NCBI GenBank assembly: GCA_014729675.1
Contig: WJJM01000005.1
Coordinates: 1-52,488 of the forward strand
Direction: 5' to 3'
Origin: Candidatus Woesearchaeota archaeon
GTDB taxonomy: Archaea > Nanobdellota > Nanobdellia > Woesearchaeales > WJKL01
Length of the DNA: 52,488 nucleotides
In this document: in pieces, positions 6,733 to 52,340 of the stretch
Numbering within the stretch: position 1 is the stretch's first letter
How the letters are laid out: each line of letters begins with the position of its first letter
The notes under the pieces: model-generated
Seen by the model: the letters and a program-made list of their open reading frames with translations, nothing else
What the model was told of the DNA's origin: nothing
Database searches by the model: none
Translations under genes and position numbers: made by a program

Positions 6733-7554
6733 TTATATCTTCTTCTTAAGAATTTCACACATCCTGCAAACTTCTTTCCTGCTTGGCTCTCCGCATTCGC
6801 TGCAGTACCTCAGCTTCTTATCACTCTTAAATTCTTCCTTCAGCAAAGGCAGGAACTCCATAAAATTTCTTACTATATTCTCTTTGACCTTATCACCCAT
6901 ATCATCAAGGATACCTCTCACTTTCCTCCTGAACACGTCAGCAGAACATGGGCATGGTTCATACACAACAGGAAACTTCTTGACTTGAGAATACCTTCTT
7001 ATCTCATCATTTGAACAGAAAAACAAGGGTTTTATCCTCTGGACAAACTTCTTATCCTTCAATGTGCCTGACTTCGGCCCCATCCCCAATCCAGCCTCAA
7101 GATTGCTCTTAAGCAGGTTCATCATCACAGTCTCTGCAGTATCATCAAGATTATGGCCTACTGCAATCTTATCCCCTTTAAGCTCCCTCGCTTTTTTGTT
7201 AAGAAGCCATCTTTTTATTATCCCGCATATCATGCAGTTGTTCAGCTTTGTCCTTTCCCTGATATAGCACATAGATGATCCTATCTCTTTTCTTATATCG
7301 ACAATATTAAGCTTTATCCCTTCCTCCCTGCAAAACTTTTTGACATTAGCAAGATTCTTCTCAGACCACTCACCTATCTTAAGATCTATAACCATACCCT
7401 CAACATCATAGCCAAATTTATTAAGAAGATAAAGAACAGTTGTAGAATCCTTGCCCCCTGAACAACCCACTATTACTTTATCACCCCTTCCTATCAGGTC
7501 ATGCTCTTCGATAGTCTTTCTTACTTTCTCCTCAAATTCCGCAGCATATCCCAT
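6733..7554 (-). CDS. tRNA 2-thiolation protein, TtuA/Ncs6/TtcA family
   Basis: SGGKDS PP-loop, CMICG, GHNLDD, CPC, C-terminal CxxCG..CxxC zinc finger; start at MGYAAE chosen. Confidence 0.9.
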   Translation of the reverse strand: MGYAAEFEEKVRKTIEEHDLIGRGDKVIVGCSGGKDSTTVLYLLNKFGYDVEGMVIDLKIGEWSEKNLANVKKFCREEGIKLNIVDIRKEIGSSMCYIRERTKLNNCMICGIIKRWLLNKKARELKGDKIAVGHNLDDTAETVMMNLLKSNLEAGLGMGPKSGTLKDKKFVQRIKPLFFCSNDEIRRYSQVKKFPVVYEPCPCSADVFRRKVRGILDDMGDKVKENIVRNFMEFLPLLKEEFKSDKKLRYCSECGEPSRKEVCRMCEILKKKI

Positions 7555-39906: not shown

Positions 39907-41772
39907 TTATTCTTTCTTTTTCTTCATCAGATCATGCGCGCTGGGCACACTATCCTTTGATTTTTCCTTCATTTCTTTTCTTCCTTTCTCTATGATATCC
40001 TGCGGGCTCATCGGCTCTTTAGGCCCTTCTTCTTTCTCTTCACCCTGTATTGAGCCTGTCTTCTTCAGCTGTTCATAATACTTCTCAGCCTCATCTACTA
40101 TCTTCTTTTTATCAGGATCAACTTTTCTTTCCTGTTTTTCTTGCTTTTTTTCACTTAGTTTCTGCTCAACTTTTTTCAGCAGTTCTTTTTTCATATTTTC
40201 TTTTTCACTGTCTTCGCCTATTACTTCCTTCTCCTGCTCAATACCTTCTATGTCTTCTTCAACTTCTTTTATCTTATCCTCGACCTTTTCTATATCAGCA
40301 GTCTTAGGCTCTTTTTCTTTGGATATCTTTTCAACATCATCTTTTATATCCTTAACTTCTTCTTTGATATCCTCTTCTCTTCCTTCAATCCTTTTTTCTA
40401 TTATCTCTTTAGCCTTGTCTTCTTCACTTTCATCTGTTTTTTCTTGATAATTGTCATCTGATCCAGTATTGGAATCTTTTTGATTATTATCTGCTTTTTC
40501 ATCATTTTCAGGCTTCTCTTCAGCATTTCCTTCTTCATTCTCAGCAGCTTCTTTTTGCCCTTCTTCCTCTGTTTTTTCTTCCTTTTTCTCTTCAGCCTCT
40601 TTTTCTGTTTCTTTCTTTACTTCTTTAGGTGATTTTTTAGGAATATCATTTTCTTTATCATTATCCTCAGTTTCTTCCTTTCTCTCTTCTGCAGGAGCTT
40701 CTTTTTTCTCTTCTTGCTCTTCCTTAGGCTTTTCAGAAGTTTCTTCCTTCTTTTCTTCAGTCTTCTCTTTCACTTCTTCTTTAGAAGCATCATCTTCTTT
40801 TGGCTTTTCTTCTTCATTCTTCTCAGCAGTAGCTTCTTCTTTCTCTTCAGATTTTTCTTCTTTAGGTTCTTCATCTTTTTCTGAAGATTTAGATTCAACA
40901 GTCTCTATCTTAGCTTCAGCTTTTATATTAAGTGCACATCTTTCAGCTTTTCCCAGAAGCTCTTCAGCAGTTGCATCATTCATAACTCTGCCTTCTAAAG
41001 CAACAGCTTTGGCTTCCCTGAAAGCTTTTGGAACAAGAACATTGACAGTTTCTTTTGTGAAATGTCCCATCTCCACTGCCAAATTGAAAGCCCATCTTGC
41101 AGCATTATCAATATCTGCTGCAAACTGTTCTTCATCTATAGCAAGGACATCTTTTCCATATATAACTCCGTCTTCATATACTGCAACAAGATCCAATCCA
41201 ACCTCCATAGGCTCTATCCCAAGCCTTGTAAGCATACCTGCAGCCTCAGCACTTATCTCATCGCCTTCTTTTGCCACTACACTATCTTCTTTAACAGCTA
41301 CTTTTCCATTCTCCACTCCAGCTTTTATACCTATAGAGCCAAGTTCAGATATAACCGGGCCTGGTGCAAATGGCGTTGGACCTGCAGGGACCACTATATC
41401 TTTTGGAGCTGTCTGTCCTGGTTTTGCAGGAGCAGGACTCTTGCTTTTTTCAAGCGTCTTGTATAATTTAAATGGATTTTCTTTTGTAAACAATAATGCA
41501 GGCATCCCTTTAAGCTTTTCCTTAAGCTTGTTTATTTCTTTCTTATCTTTAACCTTATCTAGAGCTATATTCATGAGCCTTCTTTTGGCCATCAATATCT
41601 CAACATCCCCTCTAAGCTGATCCCTCATCTTCTGAAGCTGTGGAGCAGGCATCCCCCCCATATTCAATACACCTATTATAGGGTATTCTTTCATAAGCTT
41701 TGCAAGCCTATCAACTACTTTTTGCTTGTATTTTGCTACTTCCTCTGCTTTATGGACTTTCTCTTCTGCCAT
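39907..41772 (-). CDS. rpl10: 50S ribosomal protein L10/P0 with a very long charged C-terminal extension
   Basis: Q..R..LR, NPFKL, APAKPG..AP.DI.VPAGPT.F.PGP, L..LGI.P; residues ~295-621 are E/K-rich. Confidence 0.93.
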   Translation of the reverse strand: MAEEKVHKAEEVAKYKQKVVDRLAKLMKEYPIIGVLNMGGMPAPQLQKMRDQLRGDVEILMAKRRLMNIALDKVKDKKEINKLKEKLKGMPALLFTKENPFKLYKTLEKSKSPAPAKPGQTAPKDIVVPAGPTPFAPGPVISELGSIGIKAGVENGKVAVKEDSVVAKEGDEISAEAAGMLTRLGIEPMEVGLDLVAVYEDGVIYGKDVLAIDEEQFAADIDNAARWAFNLAVEMGHFTKETVNVLVPKAFREAKAVALEGRVMNDATAEELLGKAERCALNIKAEAKIETVESKSSEKDEEPKEEKSEEKEEATAEKNEEEKPKEDDASKEEVKEKTEEKKEETSEKPKEEQEEKKEAPAEERKEETEDNDKENDIPKKSPKEVKKETEKEAEEKKEEKTEEEGQKEAAENEEGNAEEKPENDEKADNNQKDSNTGSDDNYQEKTDESEEDKAKEIIEKRIEGREEDIKEEVKDIKDDVEKISKEKEPKTADIEKVEDKIKEVEEDIEGIEQEKEVIGEDSEKENMKKELLKKVEQKLSEKKQEKQERKVDPDKKKIVDEAEKYYEQLKKTGSIQGEEKEEGPKEPMSPQDIIEKGRKEMKEKSKDSVPSAHDLMKKKKE

Positions 41773-44665: not shown

Positions 44666-45181
44666 TCATAGTCTGGACAACCCTTCCTTGCTGCAAAGCC
44701 CCACAAAAACCTCTTTAGGAACATTAAGCCCTGTTTCAACAAAAAGCTTTGCAAGCCTGTAAACATCTGATTCATCATTTTTCTTCCTGAAATTTATAAG
44801 CCTTCTTATCCCATATTCACAGAGATAACCTTCATTAAAAGCAAGAGCTGCCTTTGAATTTTTCTTGTTATATACTTTCTTTTTAGCAGTATCAACAAAG
44901 CATTCGTCTTTTCTCCATATACCTTCCTTTTGTTTAAATCCATGGTTGTAAAGCTCCCATTCTACTATCTCTTTGATTATCTCAGAACTTTTTTTTTCTT
45001 TGATATGCCCCATAACATCTACAATAGTATAGATATCAAAAAAATCAGATTCCTTCCTGTCAAACCTGTAAACCCTCCCCAGATATTTCCTTGATTTCTG
45101 CTTTACCTTGCCTCTGCTAAGCTTATTTGAAACAAGATAAGCATATTCATATCCTTTTACCTTTTTAGTCCTTATGAACAT
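44666..45181 (-). CDS. Hypothetical basic protein
   Basis: MFIRTKKVKGYEYAYLV..KQK..KYLG N-terminus, possibly nucleic-acid binding. Confidence 0.75.
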   Translation of the reverse strand: MFIRTKKVKGYEYAYLVSNKLSRGKVKQKSRKYLGRVYRFDRKESDFFDIYTIVDVMGHIKEKKSSEIIKEIVEWELYNHGFKQKEGIWRKDECFVDTAKKKVYNKKNSKAALAFNEGYLCEYGIRRLINFRKKNDESDVYRLAKLFVETGLNVPKEVFVGLCSKEGLSRL

Positions 45182-46388
45182 CAGATATTACCTCTAAAAA
45201 GCGTTTAGGCCCTTCTTTATTATATTTTTTAAGTGCTTCCTCCATATTTCCATGGTTCCTTATCCAGGTGATAGCATCAGGAACATATCTATAAGCCACA
45301 TTTCTGCCCATAACTCTCCCGTGATCATCTTCTATAATCCTAACACCATCAGGTATATTAAACTTTTTTGCCATTTCTATCGAAAGAAGATAGCTAATAG
45401 CTTCAGATATCGCTTCTTCTGCCTGATGAGATTTATCTACACCCATCTCACTAAAATAAAAAGAGTTTGTTGTTGCAGTTGTTAAAGGTATGACCTCAGA
45501 AAAAGGGCTCCTTAACGCACTTACCCCTGTTCCGATAAATATGCAATAATGGATATATTCTCCTTTATCCACCTTGGATATATTAAATCCTCCTTTATTA
45601 TGCCTATGTCTTGCTATACTAAATTCCTGTGCAGGATTCTCATTATTTTTAAGATAAACTCTCTCAACTATAAAATAATTCTTTCCAAAAAAAACCCTTT
45701 TATTGAAATCCTTGCTGTAATCATCTCCTTCTTCTATGATTATTTTTTCAAGATTATATTTCTTGATTCCTTTGACATTTTTATACAAAAAATCAACAGA
45801 CCTTTCAAAATGCAGCATAAGTTGTTCTGCAAACACATTTTCTTCAGGAACAGCATAAATCTGTTCAGTGGCATATCCTTCATATTTCCCATCAACATCA
45901 AAATTGTTCACCCTAGCATGAAACTTTACAATATCATTGGTTACACTCTTGCTTAAATCCTTAAACTGCTTACTTTCTTCATAAAGCTTTTTTTCCTCTC
46001 CTATAGGCACGCACTTAGATATAACCTTATCAACACTCCAACCAGTATAATCAAAATCCCTTTTAAGGAAAGCAAATTCCTTTATTTCATCCTTAACAGC
46101 GGAATCAACAGAAGGGCATTTCTTACCACGAGCATTACCAGAATTGTAATATAAAGCCCCAAATACACCTAAACTCAAGCTTAAAACACTCAATATTGCC
46201 AAAGAATTTGCATGTCTCAGCCCATCCTTCGGCTTGTCAGGAATAGCACTTGTTTCGCTATTTTTTACTGCAGATCTTCTTCCTTCCTTCCTTCCCATAT
46301 TCCAGTTAGGCACTATAAGGTTTATATATTTTTCCCTTTTAAGAAGCTCTCTAATACGCGAATTCATGCATTTCAGCAAAAATAGCAA
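45165..46388 (-). CDS. Hypothetical membrane-anchored protein
   Basis: Single TM segment near the N-terminus; start uncertain. Confidence 0.65.
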   Translation of the reverse strand: MLFLLKCMNSRIRELLKREKYINLIVPNWNMGRKEGRRSAVKNSETSAIPDKPKDGLRHANSLAILSVLSLSLGVFGALYYNSGNARGKKCPSVDSAVKDEIKEFAFLKRDFDYTGWSVDKVISKCVPIGEEKKLYEESKQFKDLSKSVTNDIVKFHARVNNFDVDGKYEGYATEQIYAVPEENVFAEQLMLHFERSVDFLYKNVKGIKKYNLEKIIIEEGDDYSKDFNKRVFFGKNYFIVERVYLKNNENPAQEFSIARHRHNKGGFNISKVDKGEYIHYCIFIGTGVSALRSPFSEVIPLTTATTNSFYFSEMGVDKSHQAEEAISEAISYLLSIEMAKKFNIPDGVRIIEDDHGRVMGRNVAYRYVPDAITWIRNHGNMEEALKKYNKEGPKRFLEVISDVHKD

Positions 46389-47383: not shown

Positions 47384-47461
47384 TTGTCCCAGATATTTAT
47401 TTCCTAAGTTTATCGTCGGGAAAACGCATATTCCCAGACATTCCCAGCATGGGAATGACAA
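47384..47461. repeat. TCCCA/TGGGAAT box cluster A
   Basis: TCCCA at 47387, 47432, 47442; ATGGGAATGACAA (47449) is identical to 48832. Confidence 0.7.
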
Positions 47462-47473
47462 TCTTAAATATTG

Positions 47474-48112
47474 CTAGTTGACTTTCTCCAGTCTCCAACA
47501 CCCCACTTCAATATGCTGTATCTTTTTCCTATGATGCACATAAACATTCTTCAGCGGGAACTCAAATCTCCAGAACCCTTCAACATTGAATCCATTATCT
47601 TTGCTTAACTCTTTGATAAATTTTACACTGTCAGCCTTGTGAAAGCTGTATATAACATCAGCTATTTCCATAGCCTTCACTAAGAACTTCCTGTCTGCAT
47701 GCCTTTCTTTTTGCAGCCCGAAAGGAGGATTCTGGACGACAACATCAACTTCCTCGTCGAAAAGCAAAACATCTTCCTGCAAAAAATCTGTTTTTCTTCT
47801 CAGTTTGATTTCAAATCTGTCCTCGATAATCTTAAGGTTTTCCTTAGCTGTCTGGATAGCATCTTCATCTTTCTCGACGAAAAAAACATGTTTGGCCCCT
47901 AACAGCAATGCACCTATTCCAAGAACACCTGTCCCTGCTCCGAGGTCAGCTATTGTTTTGCCTTCGATCTCTCTTCTAAAAAACGCGTTCCAGAGCACCT
48001 CAGCAGCGATATCCGCCTCTGTAGGATACTGCTCGAGCAGCACCTTAGGCTTTTCAAAACTCTTGAGTGATGACAATACTACTGCCAGCCCTTTTTTTGA
48101 CGAAATTTTCAT
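47474..48112 (-). CDS. METTL5-like N6-adenine RNA methyltransferase (COG2263)
   Basis: LEQYPT, DLGAGTG.L, NPPFG, D..F, YS.H. Confidence 0.92.
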   Translation of the reverse strand: MKISSKKGLAVVLSSLKSFEKPKVLLEQYPTEADIAAEVLWNAFFRREIEGKTIADLGAGTGVLGIGALLLGAKHVFFVEKDEDAIQTAKENLKIIEDRFEIKLRRKTDFLQEDVLLFDEEVDVVVQNPPFGLQKERHADRKFLVKAMEIADVIYSFHKADSVKFIKELSKDNGFNVEGFWRFEFPLKNVYVHHRKKIQHIEVGCWRLEKVN

Positions 48113-48120
48113 GTCAAGAC

Positions 48121-48615
48121 CTCACTTTTCCAGCACTTATTTTTCTTGATCTCATTTTTTCTGAATTCTTCTCAAGTATATCTCACTTTTTCCAGATATT
48201 TATAACTTTTCATTTCATCCTTATTTTTTCTTCTCACTTTTTCTGATCCTTTCTTTATTGTCTGTTTTTCTCCTCTAAAAATACTCACTTTTTCACCCAT
48301 AATCCTAAAATAACAAATTTATAGATCTTCCTGATAATACTCTATTATATCCAACTCTCACTTTTTTACCATATCTCCCTATATCTGCTTATTCTTTCCC
48401 ATTTTTGCATGTTGACGCTGCACCTAACTCTCACTTTTGCCTCTTTTTACCTTATTTCTTTTGTTTTTAGTGCCATTCTTCTCATATTTACTCTCACTTT
48501 CTGTATATTCTAGCTGATTTCAGCCTTATTTCACCCATTTTCCCTGAAATCAACTCTCACTTTTTGCCAAAATAGCCTTATTTTAGCATTTTTTCACCTT
48601 TTTTACTCTCACTTT
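48121..48615 (+). repeat. Array of nine phased CTCACTTT boxes
   Basis: Starts at 48121, 48182, 48233, 48284, 48357, 48430, 48493, 48556, 48608 in a pyrimidine-rich non-coding tract. Confidence 0.9.
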
Positions 48616-48780: not shown

Positions 48781-48945
48781 ATTCCCAAAATATTCCCAAG
48801 ATAGTCCTGGGAATGTCCCAATATTGTCCCAATGGGAATGACAAATAAAGCCTAAAAAACTAAAATTTGTCCTCTAAAAACCAAATATATTCCCAGATAT
48901 AGTCCCAAGATATTCCCAAAATAATCCCATTTTTGTCTTGGGAAT
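48781..48945. repeat. TCCCA/TGGGAAT box cluster B (11-bp period)
   Basis: TCCCA at 48783, 48794, (TCCT 48805), 48816, 48827 and 48891, 48903, 48914, 48925; inverted TGGGAAT at 48808, 48833, 48939. Confidence 0.88.
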
Positions 48946-48985
48946 TAGAAAGATTTAAATAAATAAGAGATATTTTTATTTTAAA

Positions 48986-49642
48986 ATGGGAATATTTTCA
49001 TCATTATCACAGAAAGACAGCCATGTTCACAAGCTGCACCAGGCAGTATCATTTGCTTTCCAAAAAGTGAAAGATGACACTTCCCAGATATTCCAATGGC
49101 TGCAGCACTTTCATCAGAAGCAGCAGGATACTGATCAAAGGCTGGCAAGGATTGAAGAACACATAGCCAGCTCTGACAGTCAGGATTCATTAGAGCTAAA
49201 GCAAAGGCTTAGAAAGCTAGAATACCACACACAATATCAGCCTCAGATTTCAAGAGAAGAGATAAGAAGGATAGCTGAAAACTCTGTATCATACGATCAC
49301 ATATTAAGAAAGATTGAAGAGATAAATTTAAGGATAGATACATTAGAAAAGAGGAAATCTGCACAGAGAATAGAGAAAAAACAGTCCATCAAAGACAGGA
49401 TAGTCAAAAAGATAACAAAGAACAGCAAGGATTACATAAAAAGCGTTGTCTTGTCTCTTATCAAGAAATATCAGCAGATATCTGGCTCCCAATTAAGGGA
49501 AATAGTAGTAGAAGAGCAGGGATTGTGCTCAAAATCCTCTTTTTACCGTGCTTTGGAAGAGCTTGAACAATCTTCAGATATAGAGATGATGAAAAAAGGC
49601 AAGGAAAAAACATATGCTTTTAAGACGACGATCCAAAGGTAA
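48986..49642 (+). CDS. Coiled-coil protein with a C-terminal winged-helix-like domain
   Basis: Heptad region, then VLSLIKKY..IS..QL...V...GLCSKSSFYRALEELE...I...K.GKEK.Y. Confidence 0.75.
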   Translation: MGIFSSLSQKDSHVHKLHQAVSFAFQKVKDDTSQIFQWLQHFHQKQQDTDQRLARIEEHIASSDSQDSLELKQRLRKLEYHTQYQPQISREEIRRIAENSVSYDHILRKIEEINLRIDTLEKRKSAQRIEKKQSIKDRIVKKITKNSKDYIKSVVLSLIKKYQQISGSQLREIVVEEQGLCSKSSFYRALEELEQSSDIEMMKKGKEKTYAFKTTIQR

Positions 49643-49700: not shown

Positions 49701-50240
49701 ATGACAAATTTAGTATTAGACAATAGAGATTCTGCTCTAGCAGAACTAAAAAAACTGACTAAAAACGTCAAGATAGCTTTTTCTGAGGTGCACAACGAAT
49801 TCGAGGATCATCTGGAGGGTATAAATGAAAATACAAACGAGATACAGTCTAATTATGAGTACATCTGTGAGGTAGACAACAAGATATCTAAGCTAAATGA
49901 AAGGATAGATGATATCTACAATGTCCTGTCTAACATCACAGGCAAAAAGCTAAAAAAGATGCCTTCTTATGAGGATATAGATCCTCTAACAACAGAGGAA
50001 AAGAATGTATTTCTTAACCTTTACACAGAGCCAGAGTCCATTTCCTATGTTGAATTGGCTAAGAAGATGAACATGCCAATTTCATTAACAAGGCAGTACA
50101 TAACAAATCTGCTTGAAAAAGGCATACCTATTCAGAAAGAATACAAGAAAACAAGGCCTTTTATCTATCTGGACAAAAAGTTCAAAAACCTTCAGGCAAA
50201 AAAGAATGTTTTGAAGATTGAACAAAAAATATTAACTTAA
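49701..50240 (+). CDS. Coiled-coil protein with a C-terminal HTH (HTH_11/BirA-like)
   Basis: GGTGGTGG RBS; LT..EK.VF..LY...ISYVELAKKMNM...LTRQYITNLLEKGIPI. Confidence 0.78.
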   Translation: MTNLVLDNRDSALAELKKLTKNVKIAFSEVHNEFEDHLEGINENTNEIQSNYEYICEVDNKISKLNERIDDIYNVLSNITGKKLKKMPSYEDIDPLTTEEKNVFLNLYTEPESISYVELAKKMNMPISLTRQYITNLLEKGIPIQKEYKKTRPFIYLDKKFKNLQAKKNVLKIEQKILT

Positions 50241-50735
50241 AACTTTTAAGATTTTATTATTTATTTTATTCTCTATTTTTTCTAAGCTTTGCTTAAAACT
50301 TTTAAATATAGAATATTTTTAAAAATTTGATTATGACTTTTTATTTGCATACATCAATTTATATTTTTAATATTGAAAATAATCAGGATAGATTATACAT
50401 TTAAATCAACCCAAAATGCCTAACTTCTATAACCTTAGAATTAGGGCTTAATATGTTCAAATTCACCCTTTTTAGCCATTTTTATCATTTTTAGTGTAAA
50501 AACTGCGTTTAATGTACCTTAGATGCCGTTTTATGAATCTCTACAGAAAAATGTAAAACTATAATCTAGATCAATGAAATAACACAATTAATTTTCTATA
50601 TTATAAAACATTTAGTTTTTGCTTAATACTTTTATATTCTATTTATTTTAGTTTTTGCTTAAATGTTTTATACGCACTGACCACTGTTCAAGTGTAGGCA
50701 TAATATTTATATATACGAACATCTTTTTACTAATA

Positions 50736-51251: not shown

Positions 51252-52100
51252 ATGGTGCTCCAAAAACTAGAAACAGAACTAAGGCTAAGAGGATTTTCAG
51301 AAAAGACAGTAAAAAACTATATTTTCTATAATCAAAAATTCTTAGATTTTATAAACAAGCAGCCAGAAGATATCCAAGAAGATGATATAAAATCATTCAT
51401 TGCACATCTGATGTCAGACAAAAACTATAAGCCTGCATCAACAAACTTAGCTATCTGCTCTTTAAGGTATTTCTATGAAAAAGTCCTTGAAAAAGAGATA
51501 TTTACAAAAATAACTCCTCCAAAATCAGAAAAAAAGATCCCTACAGTTCTAACAAAAGAAGAATTGAGCCAATTGTTCAATGCAATAAATAACAAAAAAC
51601 ACAGGATACTATTAGAACTCATGTATTCTTCAGGATTAAGGGTCAGTGAAGCAGTATCATTAAAGTTTGAAGACCTAAACTTAAATGAAAAAGTGGGTAT
51701 TGTACGCCAGGCAAAAGGAAGAAAAGACAGGATCATAATCCTCTCAAATAATACCGTAGACAAACTGGAAAAATATAAGAAAAAAAGAGATAAAAAGAAA
51801 CTATTCCCAGATAATCCTTATATATTCCCATCAAACAAACAAAAAGAATCCCATATGTCTATAAGGCAGGCTCAGAAAGTGATAAATGACGCAGCTAAAA
51901 AAGCAGGCATAAAAAAGAGGGTATTCTGCCATTCATTAAGAAGCAGCTTTGCAACACATCTGTTAGACTCAGGCACAGATATAAGAGTCATCCAGGAATT
52001 GCTAGGCCACTCTAACCTCTCTACTACAGAAAGATACACAAAAGTCTCTACAGAGCAATTAAAGAAAGTAAGATCTCCTTTTGATAATATTAAATTCTAA
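51252..52100 (+). CDS. xerA: Tyrosine recombinase, XerA/integron-integrase-like
   Basis: SAM-like N-domain (LRGFSEKT..Y), SGLRVSE, KG.K.R, HSLR, LGH, T..Y; no IntI-specific insertion visible. Confidence 0.88.
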   Translation: MVLQKLETELRLRGFSEKTVKNYIFYNQKFLDFINKQPEDIQEDDIKSFIAHLMSDKNYKPASTNLAICSLRYFYEKVLEKEIFTKITPPKSEKKIPTVLTKEELSQLFNAINNKKHRILLELMYSSGLRVSEAVSLKFEDLNLNEKVGIVRQAKGRKDRIIILSNNTVDKLEKYKKKRDKKKLFPDNPYIFPSNKQKESHMSIRQAQKVINDAAKKAGIKKRVFCHSLRSSFATHLLDSGTDIRVIQELLGHSNLSTTERYTKVSTEQLKKVRSPFDNIKF

Positions 52101-52312: not shown

Positions 52313-52340
52313 TGGGAATTTGGGAATGTGCTTTGGGAAT
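52313..52340. repeat. TGGGAAT box cluster C
   Basis: TGGGAAT at 52313, 52321, 52334, directly before the ATG at 52341. Confidence 0.7.

Follow-up and report, generated by a model that had tools for sequence, protein, structure and literature searches.

A helically phased array of one-orientation DNA boxes conserved beside a winged-helix gene pair in Woesearchaeota

Why should nine copies of a short box stand in a single orientation, at distances close to whole turns of the DNA helix, in one gap of an archaeal chromosome? The boxes lie in the window analysed here, which at 52,488 bp is the entire contig WJJM01000005.1 (C61) of a 72-contig, 1.44-Mb archaeal assembly from a Candidatus Woesearchaeota archaeon (genome G000). 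A sequence-only reading of the window had proposed that they are binding sites kept on one helix face for a wrapped or looped nucleoprotein complex. We find that the array belongs to a non-coding cis element, which a large clade of the Woesearchaeota, within the DPANN archaea, has conserved and which is linked to the genes for two proteins, p218 and p189. Both the element and the two protein families appear to be new, full-text literature searches having turned up no description of them. The features on which the argument turns are as follows:

48121..48615, - strand: array of nine boxes, each reading CTCACTTT (+ strand) or AAAAGTGAG(aGTT) (- strand)
47474..48112, - strand: gene for a small S-adenosylmethionine-dependent methyltransferase, MTS/RsmD-like, with an NPPF motif
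48781..48998, no strand assigned: iteron block of ATTCCCA/GTCCCA units with an 11-bp period, some inverted TGGGAAT copies making dyads
48986..49642, + strand: gene for p218 (218 amino acids), predicted to form long coiled-coil helices and a C-terminal winged helix
49671..50240, + strand: gene for p189 (189 amino acids), predicted to form one 80-residue helix followed by a winged helix-turn-helix (weak HTH_24 and HTH_11 matches)

A motif search recovered exactly the nine same-strand boxes and the spacings that had been described. On the + strand CTCACTTT starts at 48121, 48182, 48233, 48284, 48357, 48430, 48493, 48556 and 48608, giving start-to-start distances of 61, 51, 51, 73, 73, 63, 63 and 52 bp, and the box arrows, drawn as 5'-AAAGTGAG-3', are directed toward the methyltransferase gene and away from the iteron block. 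One further copy in the window, at 6917, is unrelated to the array. When the window was shuffled 100 times with its dinucleotide composition preserved, CTCACTTT appeared 3.23 times on average and 8 times at most, and none of the shuffles reached 10. Counted on both strands of the 1,441,499-bp genome, the 8-mer is rare (35 copies) and has its sole cluster at the array, which holds nine of the 35; the longer form ACTCTCACTTT, to which the later boxes had been seen to extend, occurs five times genome-wide, and these five copies are the last five boxes of the array. The spacers had also been called pyrimidine-rich, and the tract is 73% pyrimidine on the + strand. It sits in an 873-bp gap between the methyltransferase gene and the open reading frame (ORF) for p218, with no open frame through the repeats and only spurious ORFs of 42–59 amino acids overlapping them. 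Genome-wide avoidance of the 8-mer was considered and rejected, since the 35 copies compare with 33–35 expected from order-3 and maximal-order Markov models. A clustered regularly interspaced short palindromic repeat (CRISPR) array was likewise rejected. CRISPR arrays are marked by repeats of about 23 nt or more, a near-constant period and unrelated spacers; here the conserved core is 8–13 nt, the period varies from 51 to 73 bp and spacers 1–4 are kept in a sister genome (no cas search was made).

Conservation was followed in 80 loci from distinct species, which were picked through the p218 protein alone and not by the box motif. Across these 589,663 bp, 363 boxes have the p218-sense orientation and 95 the opposite one, and 75 of the 80 loci carry two to ten boxes within 2.2 kb upstream of p218, all in one orientation; the five loci without upstream boxes comprise three that have no upstream DNA and two in which p218 is inverted. 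The cross-species box consensus is 13 nt long, AAAAGTGAGaGTT. Relative to the p218 start, boxes occupy positions -1200 to -400 and iterons -400 to 0, an order seen in the window, where the iteron block lies between the box array and the p218 start and is the only such cluster in the genome. In 79 species, 301 of 635 adjacent T[TC]CCA spacings within the iterons are exactly 11 bp, with more peaks at 22, 33, 44 and 55 bp. The syntenic gap of a same-genus genome (G001) holds ten boxes, spaced by 62, 51, 51, 74, 71, 73, 63, 62 and 64 bp. More distant relatives align to the window DNA in the iteron block alone, yet carry AAAGTGAG arrays next to it; one of these loci (L005) is from an unpublished genome, on which no conclusion depends. 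An order-wide sample of 151 genomes, two of them unpublished, yielded a box pair 48–78 bp apart in 36 of its members, the reversed control giving about 8, and many of these matches lie within 1 kb of a p218 gene. The surrounding neighbourhood of UPPS, AMMECR1, rpoL and methyltransferase genes is retained across many families.

The spacings follow the pitch of the helix. In the window their Rayleigh statistic peaks at 0.93 for a period of 10.9 bp and stands at 0.90 for 10.4 bp, and a fraction of 0.0001 of 20,000 uniform sets (45–80 bp, periods of 9–12 scanned) reached the observed value; a position-based version of the test gave a fraction of 0.026. Because the paired equal spacings (51, 51; 73, 73; 63, 63) may reflect duplication of units, phasing evidence from the window alone is weakened. 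Independent support comes from the 79 other species. When all of their adjacent spacings were pooled (n=256), the periodogram peaked at 10.6 bp (R=0.48, z=16.5), and 400 null sets with a jitter of ±5 bp reached an R of 0.206 at most. The pooled spacings fall into modes at 49–54, 61–66, 72–76, 82–88, 92–99 and 104–105 bp with nothing between; the spread of 1–2 bp within modes shows that small indels occur, and the absence of lengths between them argues for selection against off-phase spacing. Intergenic pairs taken by themselves (n=100) gave a peak at 10.9 bp (z=6.4), and 44 of 63 intergenic spacings of 45–125 bp lie within ±2 bp of a multiple of 10.5 bp, where 48% would be expected. With one spacing drawn per locus (36 loci) 67% were in phase, and the addition of 49 degenerate boxes found with a position weight matrix left the peak at 10.6 bp. 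Spacing modulo about 10.5 bp is non-random both in the window and, pooled, in the other species.

Phase has also outlasted the sequence that separates the boxes. Between G001 and the window only the four units nearest the methyltransferase gene align (61/62, 51/51, 51/51 and 73/74 bp) and the other spacers are unalignable, yet all ten G001 units belong to length classes of 51, 62–64 or 71–74 bp, the spacers having turned over while the classes were kept. Taken with the phasing in the window and across species, this supports the placement on one helix face that had been proposed from the letters of the window; each computational check suggested along with that proposal turned out favourably. 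Hidden iterons in the spacers were examined as a cause of the quantised spacing and rejected, the 63 intergenic units holding 14 T[TC]CCA copies that are unphased. A phase signal of CCC in the spacers is confounded by the box's own 5' flank, and A/T-tract periodicity in the window array is weak (autocorrelation of about 0.1 at lags of 11, 20 and 31).

Most species have a short gap, from which the boxes run on into the methyltransferase ORF, on its sense strand. Of 160 boxes within this ORF, 70 are translated as K-V-R/S and 90 as K/E/Q-S-E, so that both stop-free frames are used, and they recur at six positions; the window's own methyltransferase has no box at any of the six. Use of two reading frames in an enzyme ORF indicates that the motif is selected as DNA and that the tract is not a repetitive protein, the outcome that had been named as fatal to the proposal of binding sites. 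Tiny GTG-initiated ORFs (MRVN...) starting at each box were dropped as an explanation because the box is used in two frames of the enzyme ORF and is found between convergent genes.

The boxes and iterons hold together without the p218 promoter, and they have neighbours downstream of p189, for which three more features of the window are needed:

48951..48963, + strand: TATA-like AAGATTTAAATAA at the proximal end of the iteron block
51252..52100, + strand: gene for a XerA-class tyrosine recombinase (NF040815, 254 bits against a cutoff of 220)
52313..52340, + strand: three TGGGAAT repeats, oriented opposite to the first iteron block and 150 bp short of the end of the contig

Other species have the AAGATTTAAATAA k-mer too, at about -80 from p218, and it is probably the p218 promoter. 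In the complete genome G026 and in locus L118, p218 is inverted and its promoter faces away, and the iterons are still beside the boxes, beyond the 3' end of p218; that they stay with the boxes there makes the composite more than a promoter operator. Many species have a second long gap 2–4 kb downstream of the p218 start (+2000 to +3600) with boxes in the opposite orientation, and the TGGGAAT repeats near the end of our contig are probably the start of such an inverted second arm. The xerA gene is present in 44 of the 80 loci, usually straight after p189, and in 34 of the 56 loci that have at least 3.5 kb of downstream sequence. Smc and ScpA are encoded in the window's genome.

The two proteins, p189 being encoded directly downstream of p218 in 76 of the 80 loci, belong to no curated family in Pfam and NCBIfam scans. 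They were found in Woesearchaeota only, where their public names are hypothetical or helix-turn-helix (HTH) domain-containing protein. Structure predictions returned a coiled coil and a winged helix for each (predicted local distance difference test scores of 86 for p218 and 88 for p189). In Foldseek searches the nearest neighbours of both winged-helix domains are generic MarR/ArsR-type proteins; AspA (5k5o) and TubR (6tey) appear as weak neighbours of the p189 winged helix at ranks 31 and 40 (E ~6e-3), a generic winged-helix similarity. Their conserved linkage appears to implicate both proteins in the element. The p218 recognition region EQGLCSKSSFYR is nearly invariant, and G026 and L118, which keep TGGGA(A/C) iterons, have the p218 helix unchanged. 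In the distant genomes G032 and G017 the clustered repeats differ (ATCCCGA, GTTCGRA, TAGTCGAC) and the p218-like helix differs too, with AAAGTGAG unchanged. That repeats and helix change together while the box stays constant suggests that p218 reads the iterons, with very few lineages behind the suggestion. Between their diverging boxes the families of G032 and G017 encode ORFs of 166–170 amino acids with a central helix-turn-helix (L012 7260–7772 and 7905–8405; L014 7295–7795), which may be analogous readers.

What the sequence comparisons show is that the element is conserved, keeps its orientation, has helically quantised spacings, is selected as DNA and is linked to p218, p189 and xerA. 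In the reading that we favour, with a probability of roughly 0.55, the boxes are part of a composite cis element that acts as a phased scaffold for a wrapped or looped p218/p189 nucleoprotein complex and organises the chromosome; binding, the assignment of readers, wrapping and role are what we infer. The composite consists of one-orientation 13-nt AAAAGTGAGaGTT boxes about 5–10 turns apart (period of about 10.6 bp) together with 11-bp TTCCCA iterons, and in many species it is repeated as a second, inverted copy beyond the p218/p189 operon. Sequence-specific proteins would occupy iterons and boxes, p218 being the likely reader of the iterons; that of the boxes could be p189 or some better conserved factor. 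With all sites on one helix face, the bound proteins could touch via their long coiled coils, and the DNA would be bent or looped into one large complex at a unique chromosomal site. An element that is intact without a nearby p218 promoter, overrides coding constraints and travels with xerA points to a chromosome-organising locus and not to an operator only. As to what kind of locus, we think of a centromere-like site, an SMC boundary or an Xer-associated site. A bolder version is tentative, and we would not bet on it at even odds: the two inverted arms with p218 and p189 might form a Woesearchaeota-specific organising centre, a centromere-like or Smc-loading/boundary site coupled to Xer recombination, with a new pair of coiled-coil winged-helix proteins polymerising along one face of about 1 kb of DNA. 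Such a centre would matter so much that, where intergenic space is short, a housekeeping gene carries its sites within the coding sequence.

A number of results weigh against a phased, chromosome-organising scaffold. When only unique spacing values were used the periodicity was modest (z 2.2–2.8, with 1–3% of nulls reaching the observed value), and because the species are related the pooled statistics overstate independence and are not strict probabilities. Between coding boxes a few inherited spacings predominate (177, 223, 136 and 104 bp), of which 177 is not an integral number of turns. The second, inverted array gave spacings without significant periodicity (n=37), no phasing relates the last box to the first iteron (R ~0.2, n=70), and the correlation of p218 length with spacing is weak (rho 0.30 without phylogenetic correction, n=73). 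Conservation of the p189 helix-turn-helix is just moderate, against an invariant box, so that p189 is no more than a candidate box reader. The window's genome has a second XerA-class gene (contig C18, 8515–9273; 244 bits, above the NCBIfam cutoff), and the chromosomal resolvase may be this one instead of the linked recombinase. A search of the element loci for a unique dif-like 11-6-11 dyad, in which AT-rich candidates may have been filtered out, produced none; the best conserved dyad of this geometry, TATTTATTTTC-AATATG-GAAAATAATTA (TTTTC-N6-GAAAA type), is present in 26–31 of the 80 loci and in 8–9 copies per genome. Finally, no ParA/ParM/TubZ-type nucleoside triphosphatase was recognised with Pfam among 14 neighbouring ORFs of the window, the rest of the genome not having been searched for ParA. 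Two traits expected of such sites are present: as at a partition centromere, 11-bp direct repeats stand directly upstream of a putative binding-protein gene, p218, and as at an Xer/dif site, the element is linked to xerA.

We rank a chromosome-organising role above four alternatives: pure autoregulation, a replication origin, a mobile-element relic and an RNA motif. Were the element an autoregulatory super-operator and no more, p218 and p189 would control their own operon and the divergent methyltransferase gene through cooperative, phased binding and repression looping, as Lrp-type regulators do. A winged-helix protein whose gene adjoins its sites is typically an autoregulator, and the MarR/ArsR-type neighbours of both domains would fit, as would the iterons, which lie within 400 bp upstream of p218 in 78 of the 80 loci and abut the TATA-like element, and the first box, 9–16 nt upstream of the methyltransferase start codon. 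Phased operators of the Lrp or feast/famine regulatory protein (FFRP) family, such as E. coli ilvIH and that of archaeal Ss-LrpB, have sites at whole turns, with the DNA thought to be wrapped on an oligomer. The element resembles them in having several sites at whole helical turns, but p218 and p189 lack the Lrp fold and ligand domain, and the element is far longer, strictly polar and persists away from promoters: the iterons of G026 and L118 keep to the boxes, away from the promoter of the inverted p218, and the G026 array lies between convergent genes. Up to ten sites over 0.5–0.8 kb, a second array 2–4 kb off and intrusion into a housekeeping ORF would moreover be excessive for one small operon, and we consider autoregulation unlikely, if still a serious competitor. 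The convergent genes also bear on the idea that AAAGUGAG is read in the methyltransferase mRNA or leader by an RNA-binding protein or a small RNA. In the common layout every box does read along the methyltransferase sense strand, within the gene or in the region upstream of it; in G026, however, the array is downstream of both convergent flanking genes, and this, together with the absence of an Rfam match (hits to U6 and snoR30 had E values of 0.13–0.64, far under gathering thresholds, and lay inside the methyltransferase ORF), makes an RNA reading unlikely. The second array has no constant strand relation to a flanking gene, and quantisation at about 10.6 bp belongs to duplex DNA, not to RNA, which leaves this the least credible of the four.

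Archaeal oriC regions hold origin recognition box (ORB) and mini-ORB repeats bound by Orc1/Cdc6, and lie usually, though not universally, adjacent to orc1/cdc6. The element could by analogy be a second origin, or p218 and p189 could be initiators, with iteron dyads and polar boxes flanking an unwinding zone as in ORB or DnaA-box arrays. Like oriC, it has clustered repeats, some of them dyads, a polarity and a long gap from which genes diverge. The iteron dyads (TCCCA-A-TGGGA) loosely recall what we take to be the pattern of ORB dyads; in the distant families the boxes diverge from a centre, and the multi-copy TTTTC-N6-GAAAA dyad lies near the element and also, in G026, a short way upstream of cdc6. 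Along the contig, cumulative GC skew has its minimum at about 49 kb, but gene orientation switches there too, so the minimum does not decide the matter. Unlike oriC, the element has a box without a dyad and is not beside orc1/cdc6. In G026 it is at 438 kb, with the sole orc1/cdc6 at 765 kb, extremes of the detrended cumulative GC skew at 755 and 165 kb and no inflection at 438 kb. Distant as it is from cdc6 and both skew extremes, it is not the main origin or terminus of that genome. In the window's genome orc1/cdc6 is on another contig (C28), followed by polD and with inverted repeats of its own upstream. An origin is therefore improbable, and no relative of p218 was confirmed among 31 candidate stretches on viral contigs, a result that also counts against a fixed mobile-element relic. 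Such a relic would have inverted ends bearing recombinase or transposase sites around a cargo of p218, p189, an HNH protein and a tyrosine recombinase. Two inverted composite arms do flank the module, which in the window contains both the recombinase and the HNH protein, and GC content falls to 27–31% past 50 kb. Set against this are the same UPPS/AMMECR1/rpoL/methyltransferase neighbourhood across many families, the boxes inside a housekeeping ORF and the single copy of the element in the window's genome, and we think a relic very improbable indeed.

If the element organises the chromosome, known systems offer partial likenesses. Centromere arrays of plasmids and phages (R1 parC/ParR, pBtoxis tubC with the winged-helix TubR, pNOB8/AspA, F sopC) are bound by small DNA-binding proteins. 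The element shares their short direct repeats at a helical period beside presumed binder genes, a match that is close for the 11-bp TTCCCA iterons; it departs from them in being chromosomal, order-wide and syntenic with housekeeping genes, in its second box class 5–10 turns apart, in the long coiled coils of its proteins and in having no ParA/ParM/TubZ-type gene beside it in the window. Sites of the P1 parS type place two motif classes in helical register around a bend, within about 80 bp. The element, too, has two short motif classes in fixed order and orientation for which phase appears to matter, but it extends over 0.9–1.2 kb, its proteins are unrelated and no IHF-like bend site was identified in it.

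A third likeness is to the dif regions of euryarchaea. According to one study, dif of Thermococcus, Thermoplasma and haloarchaea lies in large intergenic regions, where the flanks and not dif itself make the Smc boundary, and the haloarchaeal dif is upstream of the xerA operon (PMC11840125). The same study describes the sequence flanking dif at boundary 1 of T. kodakarensis as architectural, the roadblock being TrmBL2 on intrinsic DNA structure (PMC11840125). Another paper reports that repeats flank dif in Thermococcales, which its authors suggest may bind a partner (PMC2958812). The element is similar in being an unusually long intergenic, unique chromosomal site linked to xerA, in a genome that encodes Smc and ScpA; it differs in using discrete phased boxes and in that no unique dif-like dyad was found.

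The DPANN archaea are uncultivated, and how their chromosomes are organised, segregated and resolved is essentially unknown. The element gives an experimentally tractable handle on these questions: a cis site, unique and order-wide, that covers about 1 kb and offers a 13-nt box and an 11-bp iteron, along with two candidate binding proteins suited to recombinant expression. Spacing quantised over dozens of species, together with a box used in two coding frames, makes an unusually clear case of selection on DNA geometry. If the link to xerA and Smc is real, the principle of a dif-associated boundary would extend to DPANN archaea, with discrete sites replacing intrinsic DNA structure.

One further repeat group lies on the other side of the methyltransferase gene:

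47431..47460, no strand assigned: ATTCCCAGACATTCCCAGCATGGGAATGAC, an outlying iteron-like group flanked by the methyltransferase and rpoL genes, part of an inverted repeat

This group, outside the main iteron block, may or may not be part of the element. Just past the p189 stop codon stands a near-palindrome, TAAAACTTTTA (extended form GATTAAAA-S-TTTTAATC), at 50238–50248 and 50294–50304. The palindrome was found in 57 of the 80 loci, mostly at +1250 to +1400 from p218, and in seven copies in the window's genome; with its 8-1-8 geometry it may be a bidirectional terminator or operator. The TATTTATTTTC-AATATG-GAAAATAATTA type of dyad occurs in the window at 50364–50379 and in G026 at 762367 and 763696, just upstream of orc1/cdc6, and could be an ORB-like or global-regulator site. 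Contig C28 of the window's genome starts 172 nt upstream of orc1/cdc6 (positions 1–175, locus L001), two PolD subunit genes follow, and inverted copies of ATTTCCA(C/G)ATGAA flank the orc1/cdc6 promoter; its start is probably the true oriC of this genome, cut by the contig end.

A scan with sigma-70 and terminator models, which are not applicable to archaea, gave nothing notable. The motif GTTAGGCACTATG (46305–46317 in the window, and many positions in L081–L160) stands beside a TATA-like box, about 10–15 nt from the start codons of several genes, and looks like a lineage-wide promoter or initiator-region element. A 407-amino-acid ORF on the - strand (45165–46388) is without a Pfam or NCBIfam match, and the promoter-like element at 46305 suggests that its true start may lie downstream of the annotated TTG. 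The ORF for ribosomal protein L10/P0 (39907–41772, - strand) encodes 621 amino acids, of which the Pfam domains stop by residue 186; the remainder, an unusually long extension, is repetitive, with tandem repeats at 40123–40882.

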